The translations under genes were made by a program, and so were the position numbers. Shown piece by piece: positions 4,406 to 19,598 of a stretch of DNA of 64,000 bases; position 1 is the stretch's first letter, and each line of letters opens with the position of its first letter. The notes under the pieces are model-generated. The model did no database searches, had not been told where the DNA came from, and saw only the letters and a list, made by a program, of their open reading frames with translations. The stretch covers positions 296,222 through 360,221 of the forward strand of contig JAWCMS010000001.1 in NCBI GenBank assembly GCA_038849525.1. The letters are read 5' to 3'. Origin of the DNA: Candidatus Pacearchaeota archaeon. Lineage in GTDB: Archaea > Nanobdellota > Nanobdellia > Pacearchaeales > JAHJTO01.

Positions 4406-5218
4406 TTAAATTTTTACTCTATCTTTATAGAATATAGCACGGTTAATTTCTTCTTTTTTTATGCCTTTTGTAAAAAAGTTTTTAATTTTTGCAAAGAATC
4501 TTGGATCTTTATACTCTTCACCTATCAATGCACCAGCAAGTTTTCTATATTCTATTCCTATACTGCTTTTAGGGGCATATAAAGAAACAGGTATTGTTTC
4601 TGAAAGAGCTTTAAGCACTTTAACATCATCTTTTAATACAGCAAGAACAGGAACTCCTGCTAATTCTTCGATATCCTCTATTGAAAGTTCAAAGTCCATA
4701 TTTCTTTTTTTGTTTAAAATCAAACCTAAAATAGGTGTATTTTTTGATTTTGCAAGTTTTACTGCACGAATAGTGCAACTTAATGTTGGATAATCTGGAC
4801 TTGTTACTACAAGTAACTCCTCGCTTGCAATAATCACAGAAAGCATTTCTGCATTTAAAGTAGGAGCCGAATCAAGAAAAATAATATCATAATTATTCTT
4901 TATTTCCTTCAATTTTTTTTTCAAAGCAAAGACATCAAACTTACCCGATGCATTAAGCGCTCCAGGAACAAAATGAAAACCAGAATCATGCACGTAAATT
5001 GCTTTTTCAAAGTCCGTTTTGCCTGAAATAATTTCATGCATTGTTGCCTGAGGTTTTACCAAACCAAAATGCAAAGCAAGATTTGGAGCAGAAAAATTTG
5101 CATCTACAAGCAAAACTTTCTTATTAAATTCTTTTGCTATTACTGCACCAAGATTTGTTGTTACAGTAGTTTTACCTACACCACCTTTGATAGAAATTAT
5201 ACCAATAACCTTACCCAT
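4406..5218 (-). CDS. minD: MinD/ParA family ATPase (archaeal MinD-like), copy 1
   Basis: Deviant Walker A SIKGGVGKTT, LVDANF..PNL, DSAP, VT.PD. Confidence 0.9.
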   Translation of the reverse strand: MGKVIGIISIKGGVGKTTVTTNLGAVIAKEFNKKVLLVDANFSAPNLALHFGLVKPQATMHEIISGKTDFEKAIYVHDSGFHFVPGALNASGKFDVFALKKKLKEIKNNYDIIFLDSAPTLNAEMLSVIIASEELLVVTSPDYPTLSCTIRAVKLAKSKNTPILGLILNKKRNMDFELSIEDIEELAGVPVLAVLKDDVKVLKALSETIPVSLYAPKSSIGIEYRKLAGALIGEEYKDPRFFAKIKNFFTKGIKKEEINRAIFYKDRVKI

Positions 5219-5226
5219 TTTTAATT

Positions 5227-5967
5227 TTAATTATAAACCTCTTTTAATTCGCTAAGCATGAACTCTTTTATAGGGGATATTTCTTGTTTTTTATAAGAAT
5301 TTTTATTTAATAAATCTTTCTGCTCTCTTTTAATTATACTTTTTTCTGTTCTCTTTTTGGGCTTTATATTTTCAATATATTCATTAAAATTTTCAATAAA
5401 TCTATTAAGCCTGTTTTTCTTTGACTTTTTTTGTACAGACATAGAAATTTTTATATCCTCTTTTATTTTTTTTCCAATTAATATAATACTTTTGGCTCTT
5501 TTAAGCTTTTTCATCGCTAAAAGAATAAGAATTAATGCTATAAAAATAATAGTTGCAAGAGTCCAGGATATCCAAGCAAGATTAGGTAAAGGAGCAGCCT
5601 GAATCTTTATCTCTTCTAGTATGCATGTATTCTTAATACAAGAACCGATAATACAATCATCGTTTCTAAAACAGGATTTTTCAAGATTACATTTATCACA
5701 AATTTTTCCACCACAATCTACATCTGTTTCATCTTGATTTTGCACTCCGTCAAAACATAGTTGCCATATTTCTTTACAGTCTGCTGATTCAAAAGGTTTT
5801 TTGGTGTATGTTCCACATGAATTAATATCAAAGCAGCGCCTTTCTGTGATTCCATTAATGCAATGGCTCCAATCAAAGCATTGCCAGTTTTCTACACATT
5901 GGGCTGTAATTGAAGAAATAAGTATTAGAGAAAATGCAATTAAGCCGCTAATAAAAAATAATCTCAT
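5227..5967 (-). CDS. Secreted/membrane Cys-rich protein: signal peptide, TSP1-like module, CxDG..NQDETDVDCGG repeat, one TM helix, basic cytoplasmic tail
   Basis: Hydrophobic N-terminus ending SITA-Q, CVENWQCFDWSHC module, TM ISWTLATIIFIALILILL. Confidence 0.8.
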   Translation of the reverse strand: MRLFFISGLIAFSLILISSITAQCVENWQCFDWSHCINGITERRCFDINSCGTYTKKPFESADCKEIWQLCFDGVQNQDETDVDCGGKICDKCNLEKSCFRNDDCIIGSCIKNTCILEEIKIQAAPLPNLAWISWTLATIIFIALILILLAMKKLKRAKSIILIGKKIKEDIKISMSVQKKSKKNRLNRFIENFNEYIENIKPKKRTEKSIIKREQKDLLNKNSYKKQEISPIKEFMLSELKEVYN

Positions 5968-6101
5968 TTTTCTTCTTCTGCCATCATCTCTATGGCTTTT
6001 TCTATTATGTGAGATTTATTGCGATACTTTCTTTTTTTTAATATTTTATTTATTAATTCAATTGTTTTTTTGTCTACGGTAGCGGATATTCTTTCTTTCA
6101 T
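5964..6101 (-). CDS. 45-aa CopG/MetJ/Arc-type ribbon-helix-helix regulator (not in ORF track)
   Basis: Hand translation MKERISATVDKKTIELINKILKKRKYRNKSHIIEKAIEMMAEEEK; alternating beta strand RISATVD followed by two helices with Y.NKSHIIE.AI; its TGA overlaps the next ATG (ATGA). Confidence 0.85.
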   Translation of the reverse strand: MKERISATVDKKTIELINKILKKRKYRNKSHIIEKAIEMMAEEEK

Positions 6102-6976: not shown

Positions 6977-9900
6977 CTATAATAAAGTACTCGCTTCTGC
7001 TATTGTTTTGCTTTTTTCTTGAAGCTTAAGTTTTAAAGTCAGATTTTTTTCTTTTGCAAGCCTGTTTGAAAGCTCATATTTTTGTGCTATGAATAACTTG
7101 CCATTTTTCGCAATAGTGTAAGGGCCGAGATAGTCCATCGCAAGAATGTTTTTATCTTTATTTATGGTGAATTCAATGTTAACCTTCTTTTCATCCTGAT
7201 TTTCATTGTCATAGCCTATGAATATGTCTCTTAAGTTACTGCCCTTGTTTTTTGAAATTACGAAAAATTTGTCATATGTTATCTCTATAGGCATTATATA
7301 TTCCAGTATAATAGTGTTATTCTCAATTATCTCTATTTTTATTTTCTGCTCCTTTTCCTTGAAGGCGGGAGTCGTCATTTCTATAGGAATATTAAGCTCT
7401 TCTCCCGGCATAATTTTGTCATAGTGTAGAGGCTGAAGATTCCATGTAATACTTTTATAATCAACTTTATCTTTTATACTTATTCCCCCAATTACCTTTG
7501 ATATTCCCCATCCTATTTTAGGATATTGGTGTATTTCTTGCGGCATGCAATCTGGTTTAGGAGTCTCTATTTTTATATCAACATTTGTTAACTGTCTATT
7601 CAAATTGTTTTTAAGTATTATAACTGTGTTTACCTTTTCAAGAACAGGGAGTATCATTGCTTTTGGAGCGCTTAATGAAACAATTTCATTTCCTATTGTT
7701 GCATAACCTTCAAGAGGAGTTATAGGTTGGGGAGCAGGAAAAATCTCTACATATAATATGCATGGCTGTGATTCAGCAGGCTTTCCATCCAAAGTTGTGC
7801 AATTATTCAAATCTATGCAATTTCTTGTTTGTGTGTTATTAATACATTTACTCCATTCCGAACACTGCCAATTTGGAATGCATTTTTTTCTATCATACTT
7901 GATTTGAGTATATTCTAAAACAGTTAAAGTCACATTGTTTGAATATGCGATATCTTCAGAGTCATTTGCTGTAAATACGACATATTCTGTTCCTGTCCAG
8001 TCTGAAGGTTTGGAAAAGCTTACATTACCATTTGAATTTATAGAAACAGTTATATTTACTGTTCCAGTTGAAGCAAAAGTTAATAAGTCCCTATCAACAT
8101 CACTGAAATAATCATACAAATTAAATACATCTGTCTTGTTTTGGTTTGAGTACCATGATTGATCAGGAATCGTTCCTGAGAATTGAGGAGGGGAATTTGA
8201 AATTGTTCTTGTTGTGTTTACAGCATTTCCTGAGAAATTGTGCTCGTCTGTTGGAGTCTGTTCGCATGTTATAACATCATTTTTGATGCAGTTTAAAGTG
8301 CTGCAGTTGAATGTACTTGCTGTCTGTCCTGAAATCCAGACAGAATTCTTGAACCATCTATAGCTTGAAGTTACAGAATCAGAATCAGAATCCAAATAAG
8401 TTGCTGAGCAAGTCAAGACATCATTTATGTAAGCTGTTAAAGGAGTTATTGACGCAGTCAAAATCGAAGGCCTATGATTAACTTCAAAAATTCCTGACGA
8501 AGTGCCGGAGCACAATCCAGAGTCATCGCATATAGCAATGTAGTATACATTTGTTGTATTGTCAGATTCTAAGGCGGTATAATTGCAGCTGATAGGGTCA
8601 TCTGATGAGTTAATCTTTGAGCAGAATGTTTTTTCTGAGCAGCCAGCAGCTGTTATTGTTGATGTATTACAGACATACAAGGAGATATTTTCATTGGGCT
8701 GATCTAAATCTATCCAGTCCACTGTAAATGTTATATCTTCACCAACATTTTTTGGGGAAGTTGAATTTGAATTTGCTGAGTAACTTACAATGGAGGGATT
8801 ACTTCCACCTATTATTTCCGTAGTAGAGTTTACCGCATTTCCAAAATCATAGCCATCTTTAGGAGTAACTTCGCACATCCATACCTCATTATCATTTGTA
8901 TAAGTGTTTGAGATTGCTTTAGTAGTCAAGCTTGGCTGGAGTATGTAATCTTTAAACCATTTAAATGTTGTTTCTGATTCTGGATCATTGTCAGCATCTG
9001 AATATGTGTAGTTGCAGTATAAATCATCTGTTGTTATAGGGTTGTCTGGCTTTATGTCAACATTACTTATTGTAGGAGGAGTATTGGCAATCGTTGTATT
9101 CCAAATGTCTGTCTGATTATAATTGCCAACAGAGTCATTAAACCACCAATACCATCTTATTGTCTGACCGCGTGTTGCTGTTATTGTTTTTGTTTTAGTT
9201 ATTTCATTACTGTTTGTCCATAAACCAGATTCATTTACAAATCCTGTTCCATTGTCATATGAAAATATATAAGATCCGGGATTTGCATCGTTTAGAGTTA
9301 TATTGAAATAAACTATATCATTATATTTTGTTGATGCATTTGCATTTGTTTTATTGTTTGTCCAGTATGGTGCTATAGAATCTATAAAGAATGTTACATA
9401 AGCGGTGTTTATTGTACCTGCAGAATTGTTCGTGAAAGCATAAAGAGTATTTGTACCTTCATTAAAAGTTATATAAGTTTCTGTGATGTAAGTTTGATTT
9501 GTTCCATTCCAGTTGAACCACGTATATTCTCCACTTGACGAAATATTGACAAGCAAAATTTTGTTTGTGTAGGTTAAGTTCGAAGGAGATATTATATCGA
9601 TTGAAGGGACTGTTGTGTCAACTGAAAATGTTACTGTTGCATTGGCAATATTATTCACTGAGTCATTTGCATATGCTTTTATTGTATGGCTTCCATCTGC
9701 AAAATAATAATTTATTGCTTCAGAATAAGTAAGATTCGTTGTTCCATTATTCCACCAAATATAAATTCCATCAGATGAGATATTCACAAGTATTGTATTG
9801 TTATTATATGTTTTATTTATTGGCGAAATAAATAAGATTGAGGGCGGAATAGTGTCTTTAAAGAAAGTTACTGATGAATAATTTAAATTTCCAGCAGAAT

Positions 9901-12900
9901 CATTTGCATAAACAATCCAAGTATTACTTCCTTCTGCTGATGTCATACCAGTAATATTTTGGCCGCAAATTACTGTTGTATTTGTTACGCCTAAATTTGT
10001 TGAATACCAGCATGCTTGGAGATTTATATCTGAGACAGTATAATTTAGTTCATTTACATTATAATTGTAGGATATATTTTGAGGATAAGTTATCTGAATA
10101 TGTGGGGCTATAGAATCTATAAAAAATGTTACATTAGTAAAATTTGTATTCCCAGATGTATCATTAGTATAAGCATAAAGAGTATTTGTACCTTCATTAA
10201 AAGTTATATAAGTTTCTGTGATGTAAGTTTGATTTGTTCCATTCCAGTTGAACCATATTTTATCTACGGCAACATTATCAGTTACAGAAATATTAACGAG
10301 CAATATCTTGTTATTATAATTTGTGTTTATAGGACTTATAATATAAATTTCTGGGTAAATATTGTCTACAGAAATATTTGCTGTATCATTTGTTGTTAGG
10401 GTTTGAAAGCCTGACGCTGAGCATGTGACATTCCAGTCAAATATTCCTGGCGAAGAAAAGCTTCTATTGTATTCATAATATGTCGATGTTGTATTGTAAG
10501 TCATTGTGTCTGTTAAATCAAAAAATCTGACTGTGCAGTTTGCTCCTGTTATTGGTTGGCCATTATTTTTTCTTGAATAATTAACAAAGAATTTTGTCTG
10601 CTGATTTTTGTATTTTATTTTATCAGCATAAGGCATTCCTGTATCTGTTTCGTCCCATATTATCATCTGGGAATTTCCTTGCGTGACATAAGAAGTAAAA
10701 TGTGTCACATTAAAACTTAAAATTCCATTAATATTGTCATAATAATTTATTATACACTCTGTTTCTGAACATATTTCATTATCTTTATAAATCAAAGGCT
10801 CTGCATCCCATGTCAGGTTTCTCATTATTATTGTTGCCGATGAATTAAATGAAGAATGCATATTTTCAGTTAAGATTGTAACATTGTTATTTTCAAGAAT
10901 AACATTTAATGTAAAGTTTTGTCCAATAGCATTAATGCAGTTATGCCATATAATCATATCTGTTAGAGGATTGTCTAAAATTGCAGTTGAATTGCAAACA
11001 TTACTCAAGTCAGGGACAGCTGACCAGTTTGTTGTGTTTCCACTAAATATGGCTGGATTGTAAGAAGGAACTGCCGAAACATTTACTGTGAAGTACCTTG
11101 TTAAGCTTGCGTTTGTGTTTGTTGAAATGTCTGTAGCGCTGCAGCTCCAATTGTAGTTTCCATTCACAAGATTTAATGAAAAGGATGTTTGATTGTTTAA
11201 TCCAGAGACAGAGTTTGTTTGATTTAATATGCCATTCAAAATTAAGGATATACTCGCAAGTCCCTTATCATCAGCAGCAGAACAATTAAATTCAACAAAA
11301 CCATCGCCATCAACGGCATTATTATTAGGCGATAATAATGTTACTGAAAAAGGAGGCTCATCTTCATTTACATTTACATAATAGGTTTCATATGATGTTG
11401 AGTAGTTTTGTGTTTCTATATAGATACAGGTTATATTAAATAAGCCTGCTGAGCTGAATGTTGTCAAGTTGCCTATAGGCGAATTTCCAGAATTAATTAA
11501 GCTTTCATTGTTGTAGAGAGCAAGCATTCCTAAAGAGGGGGTAATTAGTGAACAATTAATGTTAATAGTCATGCCTTGGTTTATTGTCATGTTGTCTTTT
11601 GTGCTATTTATGGTTAAATTAACTTGAGATGGTGCTTTGTTTATAAATAAATAATAAGTCAATCCAGTTTCATTGTCAGTATAATTTGCATTTCCTGTTG
11701 AATTAACTTTGTAAGCGTAGGTTCCTGCCGCCAAGCTAATATTTATTCCACTTTCATTAGTAACATCATTTCCGTTTCTGTAAAGTTTATGCATTCCTGA
11801 AAGCGAATAAGCTGTTGCGTTAACTTGCTGAGGATATGTTATTGAGATGTTTTGATTTAATAATCCATTTAATCTTAAATTTACAACATCATTTGCTTTT
11901 GAAATATTTGCAAATCTTGATAAAGTAAATGCAGTATAATTCTGATTTTCTGGAACATACAATGTGAAATTATAATATCCTACTTCAAGATTTTGATATT
12001 GGTTGTTAAGATTTGTTATATCTTCACCATTTCTGTATAAAATGGCCGTTGATGAATTTGTGAATGATGCGTTAACTTGAGATGGATAAATTAAGTTAAT
12101 GTCTCCTACTGTTCCATTCAGTAGTAATGTTCCAGTATTTGCTCCTTTAGTCACATTTGCGAAAAGAGTCTTAGACATGCTTGTATAATTTTGATTTCCA
12201 GTAATATTATAGTCGAATCTGTAATAACCTACTCCTAATGTGTAATTTGCTCCATTTGTTATTAAAGTCCCATCTCTGTAAATGGCTAAAGTTCCACCAA
12301 CATTTGTTGCAGATGCGTTGATTTGCTGAGGATATTGCACAGTTAGGTTTTGAGTCAAACCATTCAAGTAATAATTCAAGGTTGGTGTTGCTTGGTTTAT
12401 TGTAAATGTCCAAGATGCTGAGGAATTGCCTTGATTTGAAGTGTCATTAGCCCAGCTTTTCCAGTAAAAAGTTCCTGCAGGTAGTGTTGCATTATAATGA
12501 TAAACACCGTTTGTAGCTGTTCCAGAAATTATGTTCATAGTGTAATTTATTGTATTGCCTGAATAATTGCTTTCTAAATAGACTTTATCAATTCCTATAT
12601 CATCTTGCCAAGTTATATTAAATAAGCTGAAAGTTGTTGGGGAGTAGGTTGTCACAATGCTTGTTTGATTATTGCTCCAGTAAGGATTGTTATCATAAAT
12701 CGAGATCGGAATAATTACATTTGACTGAACATTATCTTCCCATTGGATATAAGCATTTGTTGTTCTTGTATCTGTTACATTCAAGCATATTTGCACACCT
12801 ACCCTTTCACCTGGATATATGGTAGTCAAACTTCCTGATGGCAAGTTATAATTCCATAAAACAGCGGTTCCGGGAGAGCTCCCATCAGCGCATACATCAG

Positions 12901-15900
12901 CTGCTGATTGAGAAGTTAAGGCTATGTCATATCTGTCAGTGGAATTTAATTTAAATATATACGCTAGCAGTCTTACATCAACAGAAGTTGTGCTTCCACA
13001 ATAACCATAGACAGTAAAATTCCATGTTCCATTTACCATTACTGGAACAGTCCAATTAGGAGAAGTCCAGTTAAAATCAAAACATCTAAAGCCTAGAGAA
13101 CTCACGGAAACTCCGGGAGATGTAACTATGGAAGTATCATTTGTTGTTAATTTCAACTGCTTGTAGTTAGTAAATTGAGAATCGGACTCATTATGCATAT
13201 AATATCTTGTATTATTAACAATCCATTCCTGAACTCCCTGGATTTGTAATACGATATTCCTTTCTTCACTCATTCCAGTATTTCCAAATTCATCGGAACA
13301 TATTATTTTCCATGTATAATTTCCATTGTAGAGAAGATTTTCACTGAATGTCTGGTTTGTGTTTTTAGTTATCGTTTCGTCTTGGAAGCTTATTGCATAA
13401 CCTCCATTATTAGCTGAAAGAATAAAGAAACAGTCTTTTATTCCAGAATCATCTGAAACATTATAAGTAAATGTAGGGCTTAAAGTGTTTAGTTCAATAT
13501 ATCCATTTGTAGGAGAAACTAAAGAGATGACAGGGTTAATGTCATCTTCAAGAGTCTTTGCTGTATTTGTTACATTAGTATTATTTATATTTCCTACATT
13601 GTCTTTTGTCCAAATTTTTATTGTATGCTCTGAATTTACTGATAATCCTGTTGCATTATAGTAATTATTTGAAGTGTTAGCGACATTAACATTGTCAATA
13701 AAAATAATATTCGAATTGAAATCAACATCAGCAGGATTTGTCCAGTTCCAGTAAATCCATGTATAACCTGAAGATTGATTATTAAGATTTGTTACTGAAG
13801 ATGGAGGGGTTGTGTCAGTACTGCCTGCTGGCGCGAATGCGGCTGCAACATGAACAAGCCTGTTTGCTGACTGACTCCATCCTATAGTTGTTAATCCTGC
13901 TGTTGAAACCTCCTTTGTCGAGCCTGCTCCTTGCGATGTTGAGTTCCCTGAATCCCATCTTTCTATCTGTCCTGAATTTGCTGTAAATCCTCCAAGATTT
14001 CCTGAAACAACAACATCGATAATCCAAGAATCAGATGTCAGGGTTGTTATGCTTGTGTTAATTGATGTGCAGCCTGTGCAGTATTTTGTTGTGTAGTTTT
14101 CAGGGGCCTGTTGTTTTGCGTTGTATATTGAAATTCCTCCTGCATTACTTTCAGTCACATTTCCTGCATAATTAACTTTAATGCTCGCTGTTCCGACTGG
14201 AGGGTTTAGCAGATACCATAAACTTGCGCATGCATCTGCTCCTGAATCGTCAAAATCATAGCCTGCAATTTTAGTTAATGAAATATTGTTATATGTGACA
14301 GAAGTTGCTCTGCAATTAGCTGCAGCACTGCCTGATGCTGATGATTCAGCTGTTGCCCCTACAATCAAAATTCTATTGCTATTGTTTCCTATAGTATGAG
14401 AAAAAGTAAGGTTTCCTGCTCCTTTTGCAGAGCTGCTTGAATCGAATTGTATTTTATCTTCACCGTATAATTCGTAAGTTATGTTTAGATAAGGTCTGTT
14501 TCCTGTGCTGTGATGATTTTCTCTGTCTTCTATATCAAGCCAAGGCCCTGGATCCCAGTTTCCAAATCCTAACGTTTCATAGTATAGATAATATGCAGTA
14601 TTGGCAGGATAATCTGCATCGCAAATCCTTACAGTTGAAAAATTATTTCCTAATGCTAAGTCTGTTGAAATTACATTTTTTATGTCTATACAACCCCATC
14701 CAGGTACGTTGATATCTGACCAAGTTTCTGATGTCGTTTCATTTGTTAAGGGCATTTCATTATATTCTTCAGGAGTTATAGATTCTGTCCATGTTTGATT
14801 ATCGACACGCCAGAAAATTGCGTCTGTGTCAAATGTTCCGTCTTTTTGTACAAAGTAAACACACATTAATGCACTTGTTATGCTTGCTGTTTTTGGTATT
14901 TTTGAGATATCCCATCTTATCTGCATTGATTCATTATCTTCCCAAGAACCAGCTATCGCTAAAATGTCAGCAACATTGTAGCTATAATTTAGCAGTTCTG
15001 AATAAGCAGGGTCTTCCAAAGTTAAAGTAAAAGTGTATTCTTGTCCAGGAGTTATATCCATTATCTTTATCCATTCCCCATAACAAACTTGTTGAGAAAA
15101 ATTCCAGTCTTTGCATTTATACAATTCAGAGCCTTGAGCAGTGACTGTTATATTTGCAAATGTAAATTTAGGCATTATTGTAGGGTCAATTGCATAAGAC
15201 TGTATGAAGCCTGAAATAGAAACATTTGTGTCAATATCAATTAAATTGTCTATTGAATCATTTATGTTAATTTCATTAATTATGATTTCTTTTATTTCAC
15301 CTTCTTCGGGCTTTATTTTTATATTATACTTTCCTTTTTGGACTTTTTCTCTTTTGGCTTTTCCTGAAATTTCTTTTTTTACTTCCTTGCTTACTGGCTT
15401 CTCGAATTCAATTGTAACATCTATCGGATTTCCATTAGCATCTTTAACTTCAGCATTAACATCATATTCAGGAATTTCTCCTATTCCTATAACTTGTGAA
15501 TGCTTTCCGATCTTTATTTCAAAATATTTTGAAGGATTCCAGTTGTTTATTGTCAATGAAATATTTTCGTTTGCGGAAGATTCATTTTTGCTTAAGAAAT
15601 AGTCCAAATAATCTTCGCTGATTATTGCTATCGGCTGGATTTCATTAGATTCGTGGTGGAATGATACATTGAGAATTCCAGACTCGTTGTCATAATTTAT
15701 TGAATCTATAACTGCATTTATTTTAGAGTCTTCTTCTATTATCTCATATTCTACTATAAAGTTTGTTTCTTCGGTGATATTTGTTATGTTAATTGTGGTC
15801 AAATTTTCTATTTGGATTATTTCTTCTGTAAGATTCTCTTTTATTATGTTTTCTTCAGGAATCTCCTCTTTTTTCAAAGTGTAAATTATTTTCTGAAGCT

Positions 15901-16597
15901 TTAGCTCTGTTCCAGAATCAGTTTCAATTATAATTTTGTATTTTGTTTCGTTTAATTCAACAGAACATGTTTCAATGCAGACATCATCAAATTTTATTTT
16001 TTCTTTTTCTTCTTCTGTAATGTTTTCTTCTGCAGTTGCATTTTCTTCAGGCTGTTCTGGCTGCTCTTTTTGAGCTTCTTCTGTAGGGGCTTCTGGAGTT
16101 TCTGAAACTTTTTCTGGTTGTGATTCTTCTTTTGTTTTCTTTTCATTTGCTTTTTCAGCTTCTTTGATTTCCTTTTCAGCTTCTTCCTGCTCTTCTTCTG
16201 TAGGAGCTATTGAAAGTCCTGTTAAGATACTTGCTAAACTTTCTCCTTGGCTGCTTTCATAAATTAATTTCTTTTCTTGAGAAGTTTCAATGTAAATTTT
16301 CGCATTTCCATTTCCTGATAATTCTCCTGATACTCTTAATGAAGTTATTGTTCCAGGGTTTTCTGGAGTCCATTGATATTCGATTGATTTGTCTGTCTTA
16401 ATGTTTAAAACATCAATAAAAGTGTCTTTGCTTGTAACATAGCCAGTTATGTAAGGCCTCATTAAAAAGAATAGTATTACTGTCAAAGCTAATGTAAAAC
16501 CGATTAGCAGAATGCTTTGAGGAATTTTTATTTTTTCTTTTTTTGTTAATTGCTCTGCTAAGTAAATTTCATTCTCTTTTTTTTGTTCTTCATTCAT
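6977..16597 (-). CDS. 3206-aa giant cell-surface protein: N-terminal TM anchor, DNRLRE-like, FN3-like and many Ig-like modules, HF-T motif module, TSP1-like module
   Basis: Uninterrupted 9.6-kb ORF; TM at about aa 28-47; IRWDISKIP..ASITSA; DTTPPSSVTNL FN3 start; repeated D..P.I.I.SP.N.TY units; dense N-x-S/T sequons; no C-terminal TM. Confidence 0.9.
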   Translation of the reverse strand: MNEEQKKENEIYLAEQLTKKEKIKIPQSILLIGFTLALTVILFFLMRPYITGYVTSKDTFIDVLNIKTDKSIEYQWTPENPGTITSLRVSGELSGNGNAKIYIETSQEKKLIYESSQGESLASILTGLSIAPTEEEQEEAEKEIKEAEKANEKKTKEESQPEKVSETPEAPTEEAQKEQPEQPEENATAEENITEEEKEKIKFDDVCIETCSVELNETKYKIIIETDSGTELKLQKIIYTLKKEEIPEENIIKENLTEEIIQIENLTTINITNITEETNFIVEYEIIEEDSKINAVIDSINYDNESGILNVSFHHESNEIQPIAIISEDYLDYFLSKNESSANENISLTINNWNPSKYFEIKIGKHSQVIGIGEIPEYDVNAEVKDANGNPIDVTIEFEKPVSKEVKKEISGKAKREKVQKGKYNIKIKPEEGEIKEIIINEININDSIDNLIDIDTNVSISGFIQSYAIDPTIMPKFTFANITVTAQGSELYKCKDWNFSQQVCYGEWIKIMDITPGQEYTFTLTLEDPAYSELLNYSYNVADILAIAGSWEDNESMQIRWDISKIPKTASITSALMCVYFVQKDGTFDTDAIFWRVDNQTWTESITPEEYNEMPLTNETTSETWSDINVPGWGCIDIKNVISTDLALGNNFSTVRICDADYPANTAYYLYYETLGFGNWDPGPWLDIEDRENHHSTGNRPYLNITYELYGEDKIQFDSSSSAKGAGNLTFSHTIGNNSNRILIVGATAESSASGSAAANCRATSVTYNNISLTKIAGYDFDDSGADACASLWYLLNPPVGTASIKVNYAGNVTESNAGGISIYNAKQQAPENYTTKYCTGCTSINTSITTLTSDSWIIDVVVSGNLGGFTANSGQIERWDSGNSTSQGAGSTKEVSTAGLTTIGWSQSANRLVHVAAAFAPAGSTDTTPPSSVTNLNNQSSGYTWIYWNWTNPADVDFNSNIIFIDNVNVANTSNNYYNATGLSVNSEHTIKIWTKDNVGNINNTNVTNTAKTLEDDINPVISLVSPTNGYIELNTLSPTFTYNVSDDSGIKDCFFILSANNGGYAISFQDETITKNTNQTFSENLLYNGNYTWKIICSDEFGNTGMSEERNIVLQIQGVQEWIVNNTRYYMHNESDSQFTNYKQLKLTTNDTSIVTSPGVSVSSLGFRCFDFNWTSPNWTVPVMVNGTWNFTVYGYCGSTTSVDVRLLAYIFKLNSTDRYDIALTSQSAADVCADGSSPGTAVLWNYNLPSGSLTTIYPGERVGVQICLNVTDTRTTNAYIQWEDNVQSNVIIPISIYDNNPYWSNNQTSIVTTYSPTTFSLFNITWQDDIGIDKVYLESNYSGNTINYTMNIISGTATNGVYHYNATLPAGTFYWKSWANDTSNQGNSSASWTFTINQATPTLNYYLNGLTQNLTVQYPQQINASATNVGGTLAIYRDGTLITNGANYTLGVGYYRFDYNITGNQNYTSMSKTLFANVTKGANTGTLLLNGTVGDINLIYPSQVNASFTNSSTAILYRNGEDITNLNNQYQNLEVGYYNFTLYVPENQNYTAFTLSRFANISKANDVVNLRLNGLLNQNISITYPQQVNATAYSLSGMHKLYRNGNDVTNESGINISLAAGTYAYKVNSTGNANYTDNETGLTYYLFINKAPSQVNLTINSTKDNMTINQGMTININCSLITPSLGMLALYNNESLINSGNSPIGNLTTFSSAGLFNITCIYIETQNYSTSYETYYVNVNEDEPPFSVTLLSPNNNAVDGDGFVEFNCSAADDKGLASISLILNGILNQTNSVSGLNNQTSFSLNLVNGNYNWSCSATDISTNTNASLTRYFTVNVSAVPSYNPAIFSGNTTNWSAVPDLSNVCNSTAILDNPLTDMIIWHNCINAIGQNFTLNVILENNNVTILTENMHSSFNSSATIIMRNLTWDAEPLIYKDNEICSETECIINYYDNINGILSFNVTHFTSYVTQGNSQMIIWDETDTGMPYADKIKYKNQQTKFFVNYSRKNNGQPITGANCTVRFFDLTDTMTYNTTSTYYEYNRSFSSPGIFDWNVTCSASGFQTLTTNDTANISVDNIYPEIYIISPINTNYNNKILLVNISVTDNVAVDKIWFNWNGTNQTYITETYITFNEGTNTLYAYTNDTSGNTNFTNVTFFIDSIAPHIQITYPQNISYNYNVNELNYTVSDINLQACWYSTNLGVTNTTVICGQNITGMTSAEGSNTWIVYANDSAGNLNYSSVTFFKDTIPPSILFISPINKTYNNNTILVNISSDGIYIWWNNGTTNLTYSEAINYYFADGSHTIKAYANDSVNNIANATVTFSVDTTVPSIDIISPSNLTYTNKILLVNISSSGEYTWFNWNGTNQTYITETYITFNEGTNTLYAFTNNSAGTINTAYVTFFIDSIAPYWTNNKTNANASTKYNDIVYFNITLNDANPGSYIFSYDNGTGFVNESGLWTNSNEITKTKTITATRGQTIRWYWWFNDSVGNYNQTDIWNTTIANTPPTISNVDIKPDNPITTDDLYCNYTYSDADNDPESETTFKWFKDYILQPSLTTKAISNTYTNDNEVWMCEVTPKDGYDFGNAVNSTTEIIGGSNPSIVSYSANSNSTSPKNVGEDITFTVDWIDLDQPNENISLYVCNTSTITAAGCSEKTFCSKINSSDDPISCNYTALESDNTTNVYYIAICDDSGLCSGTSSGIFEVNHRPSILTASITPLTAYINDVLTCSATYLDSDSDSVTSSYRWFKNSVWISGQTASTFNCSTLNCIKNDVITCEQTPTDEHNFSGNAVNTTRTISNSPPQFSGTIPDQSWYSNQNKTDVFNLYDYFSDVDRDLLTFASTGTVNITVSINSNGNVSFSKPSDWTGTEYVVFTANDSEDIAYSNNVTLTVLEYTQIKYDRKKCIPNWQCSEWSKCINNTQTRNCIDLNNCTTLDGKPAESQPCILYVEIFPAPQPITPLEGYATIGNEIVSLSAPKAMILPVLEKVNTVIILKNNLNRQLTNVDIKIETPKPDCMPQEIHQYPKIGWGISKVIGGISIKDKVDYKSITWNLQPLHYDKIMPGEELNIPIEMTTPAFKEKEQKIKIEIIENNTIILEYIMPIEITYDKFFVISKNKGSNLRDIFIGYDNENQDEKKVNIEFTINKDKNILAMDYLGPYTIAKNGKLFIAQKYELSNRLAKEKNLTLKLKLQEKSKTIAEASTLL
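9436..9520. repeat. 85-bp perfect direct repeat, copy 1, inside the giant gene
   Basis: Identical to 10171-10255; encodes WFNWNGTNQTYITETYITFNEGTNTLYA. Confidence 0.95.
10171..10255. repeat. 85-bp perfect direct repeat, copy 2
   Basis: Identical to 9436-9520 (735 bp apart). Confidence 0.95.
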
Positions 16598-16615: not shown

Positions 16616-18856
16616 TTATCTCATTAAACAGTAAATGACTGTTATTATAACGATTATTATAATAATATTCACTATATTCATTAATAACAATTTTAGCTTA
16701 GATTTGTTTATATCTTCCATATAACTTACATTTTTATTTATTGGAGTTTCATGATAATACTCATGAAGATGCGTGAGCATGTATGACTTAATAATCCGAG
16801 ATTTTATTTTGTATTCTATCTTTGTTATTATCATTAATACTCCTATAAATCCAACTAGGAGACATATCAATACTGATCCATATTTTGATTTTCCTTCTTT
16901 TTCATGAAATGACACATCTATAACTTTTCCTGATAGTCTTCCAATTCCACCTCTTTTTATGTGTGATCTCTCATAGTCTATCTCTAACTCACTTCGATTT
17001 TGGATATTATTATAATATAGAGTTTTTACACAACTTTTAATTTCAATGGGTTTATTTATTGTTGTTCCGCATCTGTTTAAATCAGTGCATACTCTTACTT
17101 GGATTCCTTCTATTGAGCATTCTGTCCATTCACTACACTGCCATTTTTCAATACATGATATCAATACTTGATAGGAGAGTGAGGTTGTATTCGTCATGTT
17201 TAAATCTTGATCAGTTTTTTTCCTTACTTTCCTACTTTCGCTACTGCTTTCGTTGTTGCAAGAACCACAATCGATCAAGCATGCCGAACATGTTTCATCT
17301 GTATTACAAATTCCATCTCCACAATAAGCATAAATACATGAAACATTTTGTCTTTCGAAAAATGTTTTATTAGAAACTTCTTCACAATTATTGGAATCGT
17401 ATTGAATCATATTTCTTTCTTGTATATAATAATCTCCTGTAAGACATGCAGTAATATTATACCATTCTGTCCATGATGTGTTTATTAAATTAGGAGTACA
17501 ATAATCGCACGCTTCTATTTGTCTGTATTCAATAAAGGTTGTGTTAGAAGCGCATCCGTAAGAGTCATATTGAGTAAGATTTCTTGATTGATTCATTTTA
17601 TCATTCGGAAGACAAGAGATATTTGTCCACTCGCTCCAAGAAGTGTTAAGGTAAGAAGGCCCTACTAACTGATATTCATAATAAGTCACATTCATGAATC
17701 CGCAGTTATTTGAATCATATTCAACTTTAAAGCGAGATTGGTTCATCTGATCTCTTGAGCATGTTAAATTCTGCCAGTCGCTCCATGTCGTGTTTATAAT
17801 ATTTGCAGTGCATGCATTTACTATGGCTGTTCTTAAATCAGAAGTGTAAATAATTTCATCGAGAATATCTGTCGCGTAAACTTTGTATGTGTAAGTTCCG
17901 CTTGTTAAATTTGTAACATTATAATACCAATTGCTTCCTGTGCTGTTTAACATTGTATAATTTGTATTACCTCCGTTCATCCATTCTAATTTTGCAGACA
18001 ATACGTTTCCATTAGTCAATGAAATATTCACATAAATAGAACTTCCATTAACAGTGCTTGCATCATTTGGAGTCGGGCTGACAAAAGTTATATTTAAAGG
18101 AATTGTATAATTTATTATAAGCTTAGGCCGTATTGTACTATTTGCGTTGTCGCTTGAAGCGAACTGTTTCAAATTATTTCCAGGCTTACTTGGAGGAATT
18201 AAAATCAAGCCGTAATTTGGATATGTTCCATTGTGCCATTCTTTTATTAAATTAGTAATATCCCATTCTTTCCATCCTAACGAAGTGTTTATTGTAGTTT
18301 TTGCGTAACTAGTGTTTGCGTAATCTCCTCCCGCAGAGCTCCATAAATTTATTCCATCTCTTGAATTCCACGTTGCTCCTGATTCTGTCCATGAATTTGT
18401 AATTCTTTTAAGCTCTAATTCGAATTCTGTTCCTGTGCCAGAAGTTTGATATAATGCTAATACAGCTGACTGAATATTTGCATTTGAAGGAATGCTTGAA
18501 ATGTTAAATTCCAAAATTCCTCTTTCTATTTTTGAAGATTCTGAATCAATATCGATAGTTGTAGATGAGCCGTAATTTGTATTTGCGGAATATGCCTTCA
18601 TATAACTATCTTTACCTTCGCTGCCTGGTTGTAGTGTTAAACTCAGCGCAGTTGTTAGTGGTATAATCAATAAAATTATTGAAAATAAATAGAAAAAAAT
18701 TAATATTTTCTCTTTTTCTTTTGTGTACTTTAAAAAATTTTTAATAAAAATCTCGATTTTTTTTGAAAGTACAATAGCATTTTTTTCACAATAATCTTGA
18801 AACTCTGAATATACTTTTGAATCTAAGCTGATAGTTACCTTTTTTTTATTATTCAT
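16616..18856 (-). CDS. RHH-like N-terminus fused to signal peptide, DNRLRE/CBM96-like domain, Ig-like domain, three WSxW TSP1-like repeats, Cys-rich modules and C-terminal TM helices
   Basis: KKKVTISLDSKVYSEFQDYCEKNAIVLSKKIEIFI (RHH pattern); ILIFFYLFSIILLIIPLTTA; KDSY..NTNYG..RGILEFNISSIP..WTESGATWN..WDIT..NYGL..RPKLII. Confidence 0.85.
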   Translation of the reverse strand: MNNKKKVTISLDSKVYSEFQDYCEKNAIVLSKKIEIFIKNFLKYTKEKEKILIFFYLFSIILLIIPLTTALSLTLQPGSEGKDSYMKAYSANTNYGSSTTIDIDSESSKIERGILEFNISSIPSNANIQSAVLALYQTSGTGTEFELELKRITNSWTESGATWNSRDGINLWSSAGGDYANTSYAKTTINTSLGWKEWDITNLIKEWHNGTYPNYGLILIPPSKPGNNLKQFASSDNANSTIRPKLIINYTIPLNITFVSPTPNDASTVNGSSIYVNISLTNGNVLSAKLEWMNGGNTNYTMLNSTGSNWYYNVTNLTSGTYTYKVYATDILDEIIYTSDLRTAIVNACTANIINTTWSDWQNLTCSRDQMNQSRFKVEYDSNNCGFMNVTYYEYQLVGPSYLNTSWSEWTNISCLPNDKMNQSRNLTQYDSYGCASNTTFIEYRQIEACDYCTPNLINTSWTEWYNITACLTGDYYIQERNMIQYDSNNCEEVSNKTFFERQNVSCIYAYCGDGICNTDETCSACLIDCGSCNNESSSESRKVRKKTDQDLNMTNTTSLSYQVLISCIEKWQCSEWTECSIEGIQVRVCTDLNRCGTTINKPIEIKSCVKTLYYNNIQNRSELEIDYERSHIKRGGIGRLSGKVIDVSFHEKEGKSKYGSVLICLLVGFIGVLMIITKIEYKIKSRIIKSYMLTHLHEYYHETPINKNVSYMEDINKSKLKLLLMNIVNIIIIIVIITVIYCLMR

Positions 18857-18878
18857 GATTTAGTTAAAACTTTTATTA

Positions 18879-18947
18879 TTTATAAATGTATTTATTTATA
18901 AGTCTTTATACTTATATATACTTCTTTATACTTATAAAATTTATAAA
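18879..18947. promoter_or_regulatory. Divergent promoter: TTTATAAA boxes at 18879-18886 (minus gene) and 18940-18947 (plus gene) enclosing a phased TATACTT repeat array
   Basis: Boxes lie at -30..-23 and -29..-22 from the respective ATGs; TATACTT at 18907, 18917 and 18927. Confidence 0.75.
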
Positions 18948-18968
18948 GCTAAAAAAACTAATTAGATT

Positions 18969-19598
18969 ATGAAATGTCTAAAAAACGCATGGCCTCAATA
19001 TTGGTACGAAAAAGCCATAAAAATAAAGATTCCAAATTGGGTTAAATCTAAAGAAATAGATGTATATAAAGAAAAAGATATTAATAATAAATCTATCTAC
19101 ATCGTGGCTAAAAGTATAGAAGAACTTCTTAATGAACTTGGCTTAAATTTCAATGTTAAGATTAAAGGTAATTTTGAATTTCCTTTTAAAATGCGAGAAA
19201 TTGTCTTTAATGATTTATATGACTTAAAAAAAATTTTTACTCTTAATTCTGCAGTTTTTGTTTTATTTAAAAAATATTTTGGATTTTATACAGATTCATC
19301 GAAAATGATAAAGAAGACTGTTGGAATGAGCTCTTTTTATAGAGGAATTAGTCTTGTACAAGAACTTGACAATAAAGAGAATAATATAGGATTGAATGTT
19401 GTCATAAAACATGAACTTGCACATCTTCTTGGTTTATCGTCGCATCATTTAAATAATAAATGTCTTATGCTACCCCAATTTAATTATAAATTACTTCAAT
19501 TTAATTATAATAAGCTTTGTTACGATTGCTATTCTGCATTAATTGCGTTTTGGAGCGGAATAGAAGAAAAAACAAATAAAAAATATTTAAAATCTTAA
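18969..19598 (+). CDS. Archaemetzincin-like zinc metalloprotease, no signal peptide
   Basis: HELAHLLGLSSHH.x4.CLM...LCYDC resembles the HExxHxxGxxH-C-x4-C-x-M...CxxC archaemetzincin signature. Confidence 0.75.
   Translation: MKCLKNAWPQYWYEKAIKIKIPNWVKSKEIDVYKEKDINNKSIYIVAKSIEELLNELGLNFNVKIKGNFEFPFKMREIVFNDLYDLKKIFTLNSAVFVLFKKYFGFYTDSSKMIKKTVGMSSFYRGISLVQELDNKENNIGLNVVIKHELAHLLGLSSHHLNNKCLMLPQFNYKLLQFNYNKLCYDCYSALIAFWSGIEEKTNKKYLKS

Follow-up and report, generated by a model that had tools for sequence, protein, structure and literature searches.

An array of boxes on a 10-bp grid between two divergent archaeal genes, candidate operator of a ribbon-helix-helix domain fused to a surface protein

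The divergent spacer and its array

The DNA analysed here, referred to below as the window, is a stretch of 64,000 nucleotides (positions 296,222 to 360,221 of contig JAWCMS010000001.1) from a Candidatus Pacearchaeota archaeon, a DPANN-type archaeon with a 660-kb genome of 30% G+C in 9 contigs. Within it, an intergenic spacer of 112 bp (18857-18968) separates two divergent genes, one coding for a surface protein which starts with a domain of the ribbon-helix-helix (RHH) type and the other for a metallopeptidase. Between the TATA boxes of the two genes lies an array of short boxes 10 bp apart, which is very probably the operator of the adjacent RHH domain, because the same boxes recur on a 10-bp grid upstream of about 60 related DPANN genes. 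The features of the locus are listed below; bits refer to a position weight matrix (PWM) of the RHH family, BRE is the TFB-recognition element and ORF stands for open reading frame.

18879-18886, minus strand: TATA box TTTATAAA of the RHH-surface-protein gene, at -30 from the ATG, leaderless type
18887-18894, minus strand: degenerate grid position TAAATACA, 3.0 bits, centre 18891.5, on the BRE position of the RHH-gene promoter
18897-18906, no strand assigned: degenerate grid position GACTTATA / TAAGTCTT, 1.6-1.8 bits in either orientation, centre 18901.5
18907-18914, minus strand: box A, TAAGTATA, 12.9 bits, centre 18911.5, 10 bp from box B
18917-18924, minus strand: box B, GAAGTATA, 15.0 bits, the best box and identical to the family consensus 8-mer, centre 18921.5
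18927-18934, minus strand: box C, TAAGTATA, 11.4 bits, centre 18931.5, 10 bp from box B
18940-18947, plus strand: TATA box TTTATAAA of the metallopeptidase gene, at -29 from the ATG
18713-18856, minus strand: RHH domain, aa 1-48 of the 746-aa protein, with K6, T8 and S10 as predicted outward residues of the ribbon
18632-18712, minus strand: Lys-rich linker, hydrophobic segment and A-x-S/A site directly after the RHH domain, read from the translation
16616-18856, minus strand: surface-protein gene of 746 aa, with the RHH domain, then a signal, then a CBM96/disaggregatase-repeat ectodomain
6977-16597, minus strand: giant surface-protein gene of 3206 aa, 18 bp downstream of the 746-aa gene, from the ORF list
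18969-19598, plus strand: metallopeptidase gene of 209 aa, HExxHxxGxxH, archaemetzincin-like, without signal peptide, divergent neighbour

The coordinates reported in the sequence-only reading are exact for TATACTT (18907, 18917 and 18927), for the 14-bp direct repeat TCTTTATACTTATA (18903 and 18923) and for the inverted pair TATAAGT-N6-ACTTATA (18897-18916). The region can be described more tightly as two tandem 20-bp units, 18897-18916 and 18917-18936, which agree at 18/20 positions and are in turn composed of two 10-bp units each. Boxes A, B and C are all scored on the strand of the RHH gene. The inverted pair corresponds to box A and, as its left arm, the degenerate position 18897-18906; it obeys the 8+10n rule followed in the family by GAAGTATA..TATACTTC pairs. 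As for position 18887-18894, GAAATACA is a box variant 37-fold enriched in the family, and in many homologues a box or BRE abuts the TATA box in the same manner. The three strong grid positions are those nearest to the peptidase gene and the two degenerate ones those nearest to the RHH gene. Relative to the RHH-gene TATA start, the strong boxes are in a register of -25.5, -35.5 and -45.5, common to two homologue loci, L022 and L024. The first grid centre lies 5.5 bp from this TATA start and the last one 8.5 bp from that of the peptidase gene, box C being 5 bp from the TATA box at 18940 and touching the BRE position of the peptidase promoter. The array had been said to abut both BRE positions, and the five-position grid does extend over the interval bounded by the BREs of the two genes.

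Over 337 upstream regions of this genome, TTTATA/TTTAAA peak sharply at -29 from the ATG, with an A-rich stretch from -36 to -30, which is the signature of leaderless archaeal BRE/TATA promoters. Both genes display TTTATAAA at this genome-wide TTTAWA position, and the array fills the gap between these two divergent TATA boxes, as proposed from the sequence alone.

Within the genome, a non-trivial 7-mer occurring three times at a period of 10 is found at this locus only, and 7-mer triples at periods 7-30 at 15 loci. Dinucleotide shuffles in 100-bp blocks lead to 0.33 expected loci per genome for period 10, 1.0 for periods 9-11 and 5.1 for all periods. When the 112-bp spacer itself is shuffled, P is 1.5e-4 (period 10), 3e-4 (periods 9-11) and 3e-3 (any period 7-30), and the mean number of boxes of at least 11 bits is 0.03, three or more being never obtained in 2000 shuffles. 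Comparison of the periodicity with shuffled DNA, proposed earlier as a check, thus gives a mixed answer: the triple is unique and P in the spacer is about 1e-4, but with 0.33 expected per genome this is weak by itself. In addition, 15 cases of an exact 14-bp repeat within 50 bp occur in the genome, where shuffling gives 3.6, so that small local duplications form a class of their own here.

The window and the whole genome were also searched with the 13/14-mer, the paired boxes and the inverted pair (up to 2-3 mismatches), and no other convincing site of a regulon was detected. A TATACTT-N15-AAGTATA pair at C2:70846, located between convergent gene ends, was dismissed as a site. The lack of any other cluster of phased boxes in the genome is what would be expected for a dedicated autoregulator. 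Frequent arrays in unrelated intergenic regions would have spoken against the sequence-only reading; the genome contains no other intergenic phased boxes, and control upstream regions give no signal at a lag of 10.

A DPANN family of RHH genes and its upstream boxes

The AlphaFold2 model of the RHH domain (65-sequence alignment, monomer) reaches a predicted local distance difference test score of 90.9, with residues 1-12 extended, a helix at 13-25 and a second one at 30-47. In a Foldseek search with this model, CopG-DNA complexes come on top, followed by MatP, CdbA, Arc, VapB, TacA and AmrZ, and most matches are RHH proteins. Pfam matches across the family comprise DUF6364 in 65/65 sequences (best 4e-7), RepB-RCR_reg in 33, CcdA in 11, ParG in 4 and RHH_1/3/9 in 1-2 each; most of the better-supported ones are RHH-type families. 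The best sequence match in the PDB is the viral RHH protein SvtR (2kel, E = 0.04-0.16). By modelled fold, and as suggested by the profile matches, the N-terminal 48 aa are a CopG-like RHH domain, predicted to bind DNA.

Using residues 1-75 as query, we found a protein of 1071 aa with the same N-terminus (54% identical), carrying a Laminin_G_3 ectodomain instead. A profile search of 1.84 billion representatives gave 205 matches at E <= 1e-3; these are mostly proteins of 44-110 aa, and about a dozen are surface proteins of 660-1465 aa matching in their first 60-75 residues. Seventeen fused homologues share one layout, in which KKKVTLSIDSKVY..F.KYCEENAIMLSKKIEL is followed by a linker rich in Lys, a hydrophobic stretch and an A-x-A site. 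No relative of the RHH domain was retrieved by tblastn in a phage/virus collection.

One genome per species was scanned with a trimmed 7-sequence alignment, which led to 74 homologue loci labelled as Woese-, Pace- and Nanoarchaeota. According to the ORF parse, the RHH domain is part of a long protein with an export signal in 19 loci and makes up a standalone gene, 43-66 aa long, in 49; 4 others (L062 and L072-L074) are short ORFs with a nuclease-like extension at the N-terminus and 2 are without assignable start. Nearly all the 49 standalone genes run 3-19 bases into the start of a gene downstream, which codes for a protein with an N-terminal signal peptide. The fusion in the window thus corresponds to an in-frame join of such a conserved pair of RHH and secreted-protein genes.

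Start codons of the homologues were chosen by rule, and nine loci with doubtful starts or N-terminal extensions were excluded from the phased analyses. In the 140 bp upstream of 72 homologous RHH genes, AAGTATA/TATACTT is 19-fold and GAAGTATA/TATACTTC 52-fold enriched compared to the rest of the loci, and boxes of the window type are directly visible, for example TATACTTCTATGGAAGTATA and TTTCTTTATACTTC. The density of boxes upstream of homologues is 2.13 per 90 bp, whereas 59 further upstream regions from these loci yield only 0.085 (Mann-Whitney p = 5e-19); the 63-64 scored regions contain 2.1-2.7 boxes each. Same-orientation boxes are spaced by 10 bp (33 pairs), 20 (20), 30 (7) and 40 (5), any other spacing being observed at most 3 times. 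Pairs of the type TATACTTC..GAAGTATA are 12, 22, 32 or 42 apart and those of the opposite arrangement 8, 18 or 28. All these spacings fit a single 10-bp grid, with the centre of the box between A2 and G3.

The same period emerges from an autocorrelation that makes no use of the motif. In 63 upstream regions, its value at lag 10 is 0.466 compared with 0.343 in shuffles (z = 21.5), and z is 11.6 at lag 20 and 5.6 at lag 30, while controls are flat (163 regions of this genome and 59 of the loci). In many loci the register with respect to the promoter is fixed, with grid centres at -3.5, -13.5, -23.5, -33.5 and -43.5 from the TATA start, and seven loci possess an extra box just downstream of the TATA box. 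The sequence-only reading had suggested to look for phased repeats upstream of homologous RHH fusions; they are present upstream of 63-72 RHH genes, with a 19-52-fold enrichment of the box and a strict 10-bp grid.

In the reverse direction, the palindrome TATACTTC-N4-GAAGTATA has two exact matches in 301 genomes of the order, both about 100 bp upstream of an RHH gene of the family; only these two are informative. With 1 mismatch it is found in 16/301 genomes, no more than a control with the reversed pattern. Most of these 1-mismatch matches are a single conserved coding 20-mer of a zinc-ribbon gene. The stretch that bears it is nearly identical across several genera (L081, L086, L088, L089, L090, L092 and L094); it lies at about position 1500 of each locus (in L092 the match is at position 27) and starts a gene, ATGAAATCCAAAGATATAATTCAGCAGAAGTATAAAAATGTAACCTGTCCTAAATGTAAT..., which reads MKSKDIIQQKYKNVTCPKCNSNQIKKDGKRK, a zinc-ribbon N-terminus. 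It is probably a widely spread insertion sequence that matches the palindrome by chance.

A further link between protein and box comes from the ribbon. K6, T8 and S10, alternate residues facing outward, are invariant or nearly so in the family and are retained in the protein of the window. S10 is replaced in two loci only, by A in L036 and by N in L002. In these two loci the boxes read (G/T)CTGTATA and not (G/T)AAGTATA in 4/4 cases, compared with 3 of about 90 boxes at S10 loci; the box pair of L002 is also on the grid, 32 bp apart. The change in L036 and L002 may go back to one ancestral event and so counts as one or two events. Such a covariation between box and S10 is of the kind expected if the RHH domain reads the box.

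How the array may work

We propose that one RHH dimer would occupy each box, about 8 bp long (tA-GAAGTATA as consensus of the family; in the window TAAGTATA, GAAGTATA and TAAGTATA), and that its two-stranded beta-ribbon, with K6, T8 and S10 outward, would enter the major groove. Since the boxes are exactly 10 bp apart, the dimers would be aligned on one face of the helix, as in CopG, and cooperative binding would be possible. The filled array would then compete with transcription factor B (TFB) and the TATA-binding protein (TBP) at both promoters; these factors would be excluded, as the end grid positions overlap both BREs. The surface-protein operon would in this way dampen its own expression, and the peptidase would be repressed alongside simply owing to the local order of genes. 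The sequence features, the RHH fold, the conservation of box and grid across the family, their anchoring to the TATA box and the covariation with the ribbon residue are observed, whereas binding by the RHH domain, its cooperativity and the sign of regulation are inferred. Autorepression is favoured by a grid that reaches the BRE, by homologue boxes downstream of the TATA box and by the habits of known RHH autoregulators. The fused RHH domain could act while tethered to the membrane or after cleavage.

It had been suggested that the array is the binding site of the adjacent fused RHH and co-regulates both genes. The first part is retained, the boxes of the homologues providing the link to the RHH domain. 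The peptidase part is not a trait of the family: the upstream gene is divergent in only 23/63 homologue loci, and a co-control of the peptidase may be deduced just from the geometry, the last strong box being so close to its TATA box.

Several points weigh against an operator of this kind. Taken alone, the statistics within the genome show that the array is unusual, which is suggestive of function and not decisive; the decisive evidence that it exceeds chance is provided by the homologues. These are related by descent, so that their counts are not fully independent, and the PWM was built on the same upstream set on which boxes were counted; its seed came from the window, and neither the autocorrelation nor the exact-word counts are affected by this circularity. 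On the protein side, Foldseek E-values are weak, the domain being so small, and the domain of the window matches DUF6364 with E = 0.006 and 17.5 bits for a cut-off of 27.3, its RHH Pfam matches being below cut-off. The fused RHH ends only about 5 residues before the membrane segment and would still have to reach DNA. As for the array, the two grid positions beside the RHH-gene promoter score only 1.7-3 bits, and the strong boxes lie 20-50 bp upstream of the RHH-gene TATA box, where archaeal activators also bind. Finally, public reads with the locus come from DNA runs of one hot-spring study only, with identical sequence and no variants, and in the public runs searched no RNA run containing it was found.

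The position of the strong boxes speaks for an alternative which keeps the same protein and the same boxes, and considers them as an upstream activating site where RHH dimers recruit or stabilise TBP/TFB in a positive autoregulation. Known archaeal activators bind the zone upstream of the BRE; strong boxes of the window centre at -25 to -45 from the RHH-gene TATA start and those of the homologues mostly at -13 to -50. We hold this alternative for unlikely, since many homologue grids reach -3.5, on the BRE, since seven loci have a box between TATA and start site, both being positions of a repressor, and since box C is in contact with the BRE of the divergent promoter. Repressors also make up the majority of characterised RHH autoregulators. 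On the other hand, aCcr1, an archaeal RHH protein whose core motif is similar, acts on its targets both as repressor and as inducer (PMC9976892).

Alternatively, the boxes would not be RHH sites at all, being either reiterated BRE/TATA-like elements or sites of another conserved factor of the operon. TATA is indeed part of every box, and the AGAAAT position beside the TATA box also fits a BRE. This is quite improbable, because TATACT and ATACTT have no positional peak in the 337 upstream regions and controls contain 25-fold fewer boxes. Moreover, the occurrence of both orientations on one 10-bp grid suits a symmetric dimer and not a directional BRE/TATA, the box sequence changes with a ribbon residue of the RHH domain, and arrays accompany the RHH gene whatever the downstream gene is.

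RHH partition proteins bind phased repeat arrays, and it can be asked whether the array is a centromere-like or tethering site, by which a membrane-anchored RHH would hold the locus at the membrane in the manner of ParR, ParG or omega, regulation being secondary. Such a role would fit with ParG among the weak Pfam matches and with the short distance of about 5 residues between the fused RHH and the membrane segment. Against this, arrays of the same kind accompany the 49 standalone homologues, which are devoid of a membrane segment, the grid keeps its register with the TATA box of the RHH gene and no ParA gene adjoins this locus, which makes this role very improbable. Least probable of all is a functionless product of chance or replication slippage in an AT-rich spacer: 0.33 triples are expected per genome and local duplications form a class of 15, one being 570 bp away in the peptidase gene, but box, 10-bp spacing and position relative to TATA recur at dozens of homologues in other species, whose sequences are too different to come from a single segment of DNA transferred recently, and none of the spacer shuffles produced three boxes of 11 bits or more.

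If the array is an operator of the RHH domain, the fusion itself may suggest a loop coupled to export, which we put forward only tentatively. In this view the signal peptide would be extended at its N-terminus by the RHH domain. Once the protein is inserted in the membrane and cut by signal peptidase, an RHH-membrane stub would persist, or a freed RHH would be produced by intramembrane proteolysis, so that there would be one repressor per exported protein. With the grid on one face, several dimers tethered to the membrane, and all coming from its side, could occupy the same DNA and pull the locus to the membrane. If true, it would constitute a circuit of regulated-proteolysis or transertion type in DPANN, of which the unfused, translationally coupled pairs would be the ancestral form.

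Known systems and other observations at the loci

The array echoes that of CopG (RepA of pMV158), which with its roughly 45 aa is a minimal RHH and which gives the best structural match (1ea4 and 1b01; template-modelling score 0.61-0.69, 24-25% identity). CopG autoregulates its own operon, with several dimers on successive turns of one DNA face. It is a bacterial protein acting on a sigma-70 promoter through a 13-bp pseudo-symmetric core element, whereas the array here lies at archaeal BRE/TATA promoters and consists of separate polar boxes of 8 bp, which take either orientation along a 10-bp grid; furthermore, the regulator is joined to an export signal in 19/74 homologue loci as well as in the gene of the window. 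The omega repressor of pSM19035 and ParG/ParR also use arrays of short repeats, direct or inverted, filled cooperatively by consecutive dimers. The heptads of omega are 7 bp apart and its dimers spiral, while boxes here are 10 bp apart and dimers are predicted on one face. Omega, ParG and ParR serve partition as well, and a partition context was not seen at this locus.

Among archaea, aCcr1 (SiL_0190 / SIRV2 gp21) is the closest case and, like SvtR, belongs to the small RHH transcription factors of archaea and their viruses. It binds AGTATTA in promoters (PMC9976892). This motif resembles the AGTATA core here, a resemblance that is the only link and has the value of a lead. Both proteins are from Sulfolobales and viruses, aCcr1 having 1-2 sites per promoter and a cell-cycle regulon; here, in a DPANN family, arrays consist of 2-6 phased boxes, a regulon was not found and the pairing with a secreted-protein gene is constant. 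The topology of the fused protein, with a cytoplasmic N-terminal DNA-binding domain, one membrane segment and an extracytoplasmic part, recalls ToxR and CadC. These bacterial proteins contain winged-helix domains and sensor ectodomains, unlike the RHH placed before an apparently cleavable signal peptide of a structural surface protein, and the likeness is topological only.

RHH operators with phased sub-sites are textbook matter. In the searchable literature, we found no paper on this RHH family or on RHH-signal-peptide fusions in DPANN, nor a description of the box on a strict 10-bp grid locked to an archaeal TATA or of the pairing with secreted proteins. To our knowledge, gene regulation has hardly been explored in DPANN archaea, organisms that cannot be grown alone. 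The predicted regulator-operator pair is concrete, and its two parts, a domain of 48 aa and a box of 8 bp repeated on a 10-bp grid, are within reach of synthesis, a peptide and oligonucleotides being enough for a test. Woese-, Pace- and Nanoarchaeota share it as a conserved pair, which always accompanies genes of secreted or giant surface proteins, molecules thought to mediate contact with hosts. A natural specificity switch is also on offer, S10 to A or N together with AAGTATA to CTGTATA. The fused form raises the question of how a transcription factor works as part of an export signal.

Concerning the genes of the locus, the segment 18632-18712 looks like an export signal or a signal anchor. 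The 3206-aa gene is probably in one transcription unit with the 746-aa gene, judging only from the short gap between them. The translation of the peptidase contains the motif HELAHLLGLSSH and matches Peptidase_M54 over nearly its full length (E = 6.7e-4) and M10 (E = 4e-4), both under the curated cut-offs. No homologue of this divergent peptidase was found among 60 relatives, leaving no comparison on the peptidase side. At 19476-19517 (C1:315697), its gene harbours a 21-bp tandem duplication in which CAATTTAATTATAA comes again at offset 21 and KLLQFNY is encoded twice; this duplication counts among the 15 exact 14-bp near-repeats of the genome.

The genome also contains a standalone RHH paralogue of 54 aa (C7:4338-4502; L005 1477-1641), 37% identical to the domain of the window and without GAAGTATA boxes in its upstream region. 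It is located upstream of a small ORF and of an N6-adenine methyltransferase-like gene (DPACGSGAFL), and looks like a controller protein of a restriction-modification system. Another candidate paralogue, C1:105097, was spurious and corresponds to ribosomal protein S19.

In other members of the family, the RHH domain occupies a different place. In L019, one of the 19 long ORFs, and in L062, L072, L073 and L074, it is C-terminal to a domain of about 55-95 aa (…DGKEVRVELETVSSNFI.HKH..D.VDEIICL…), which looks like a small PD-(D/E)xK-type nuclease. The giant surface proteins of some fused homologues (P0002, P0008, P0012, P0026, P0042, P0053, P0055, P0063 and P0078) have a conserved head and tail and a variable body. 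After middle parts that differ, they share a C-terminal part in which a Gly/Ser run precedes some 200 aa of a common block (…NxGxxFLNxC…), a transmembrane helix and finally a basic tail.

Lastly, the window includes a second, unfused RHH-like gene of 45 aa (MKERISATVDKKTIELINK..., 5964-6101, minus strand). Its stop overlaps the start of a gene for a Cys-rich signal-peptide protein (5227-5967), followed by a ParA/MinD-like ATPase gene (4406-5218). Upstream of it are AGTATTA (6160-6154), the motif of aCcr1 from Sulfolobales, and, immediately ahead of the ATG, its inverse TAATACT (6108-6102).

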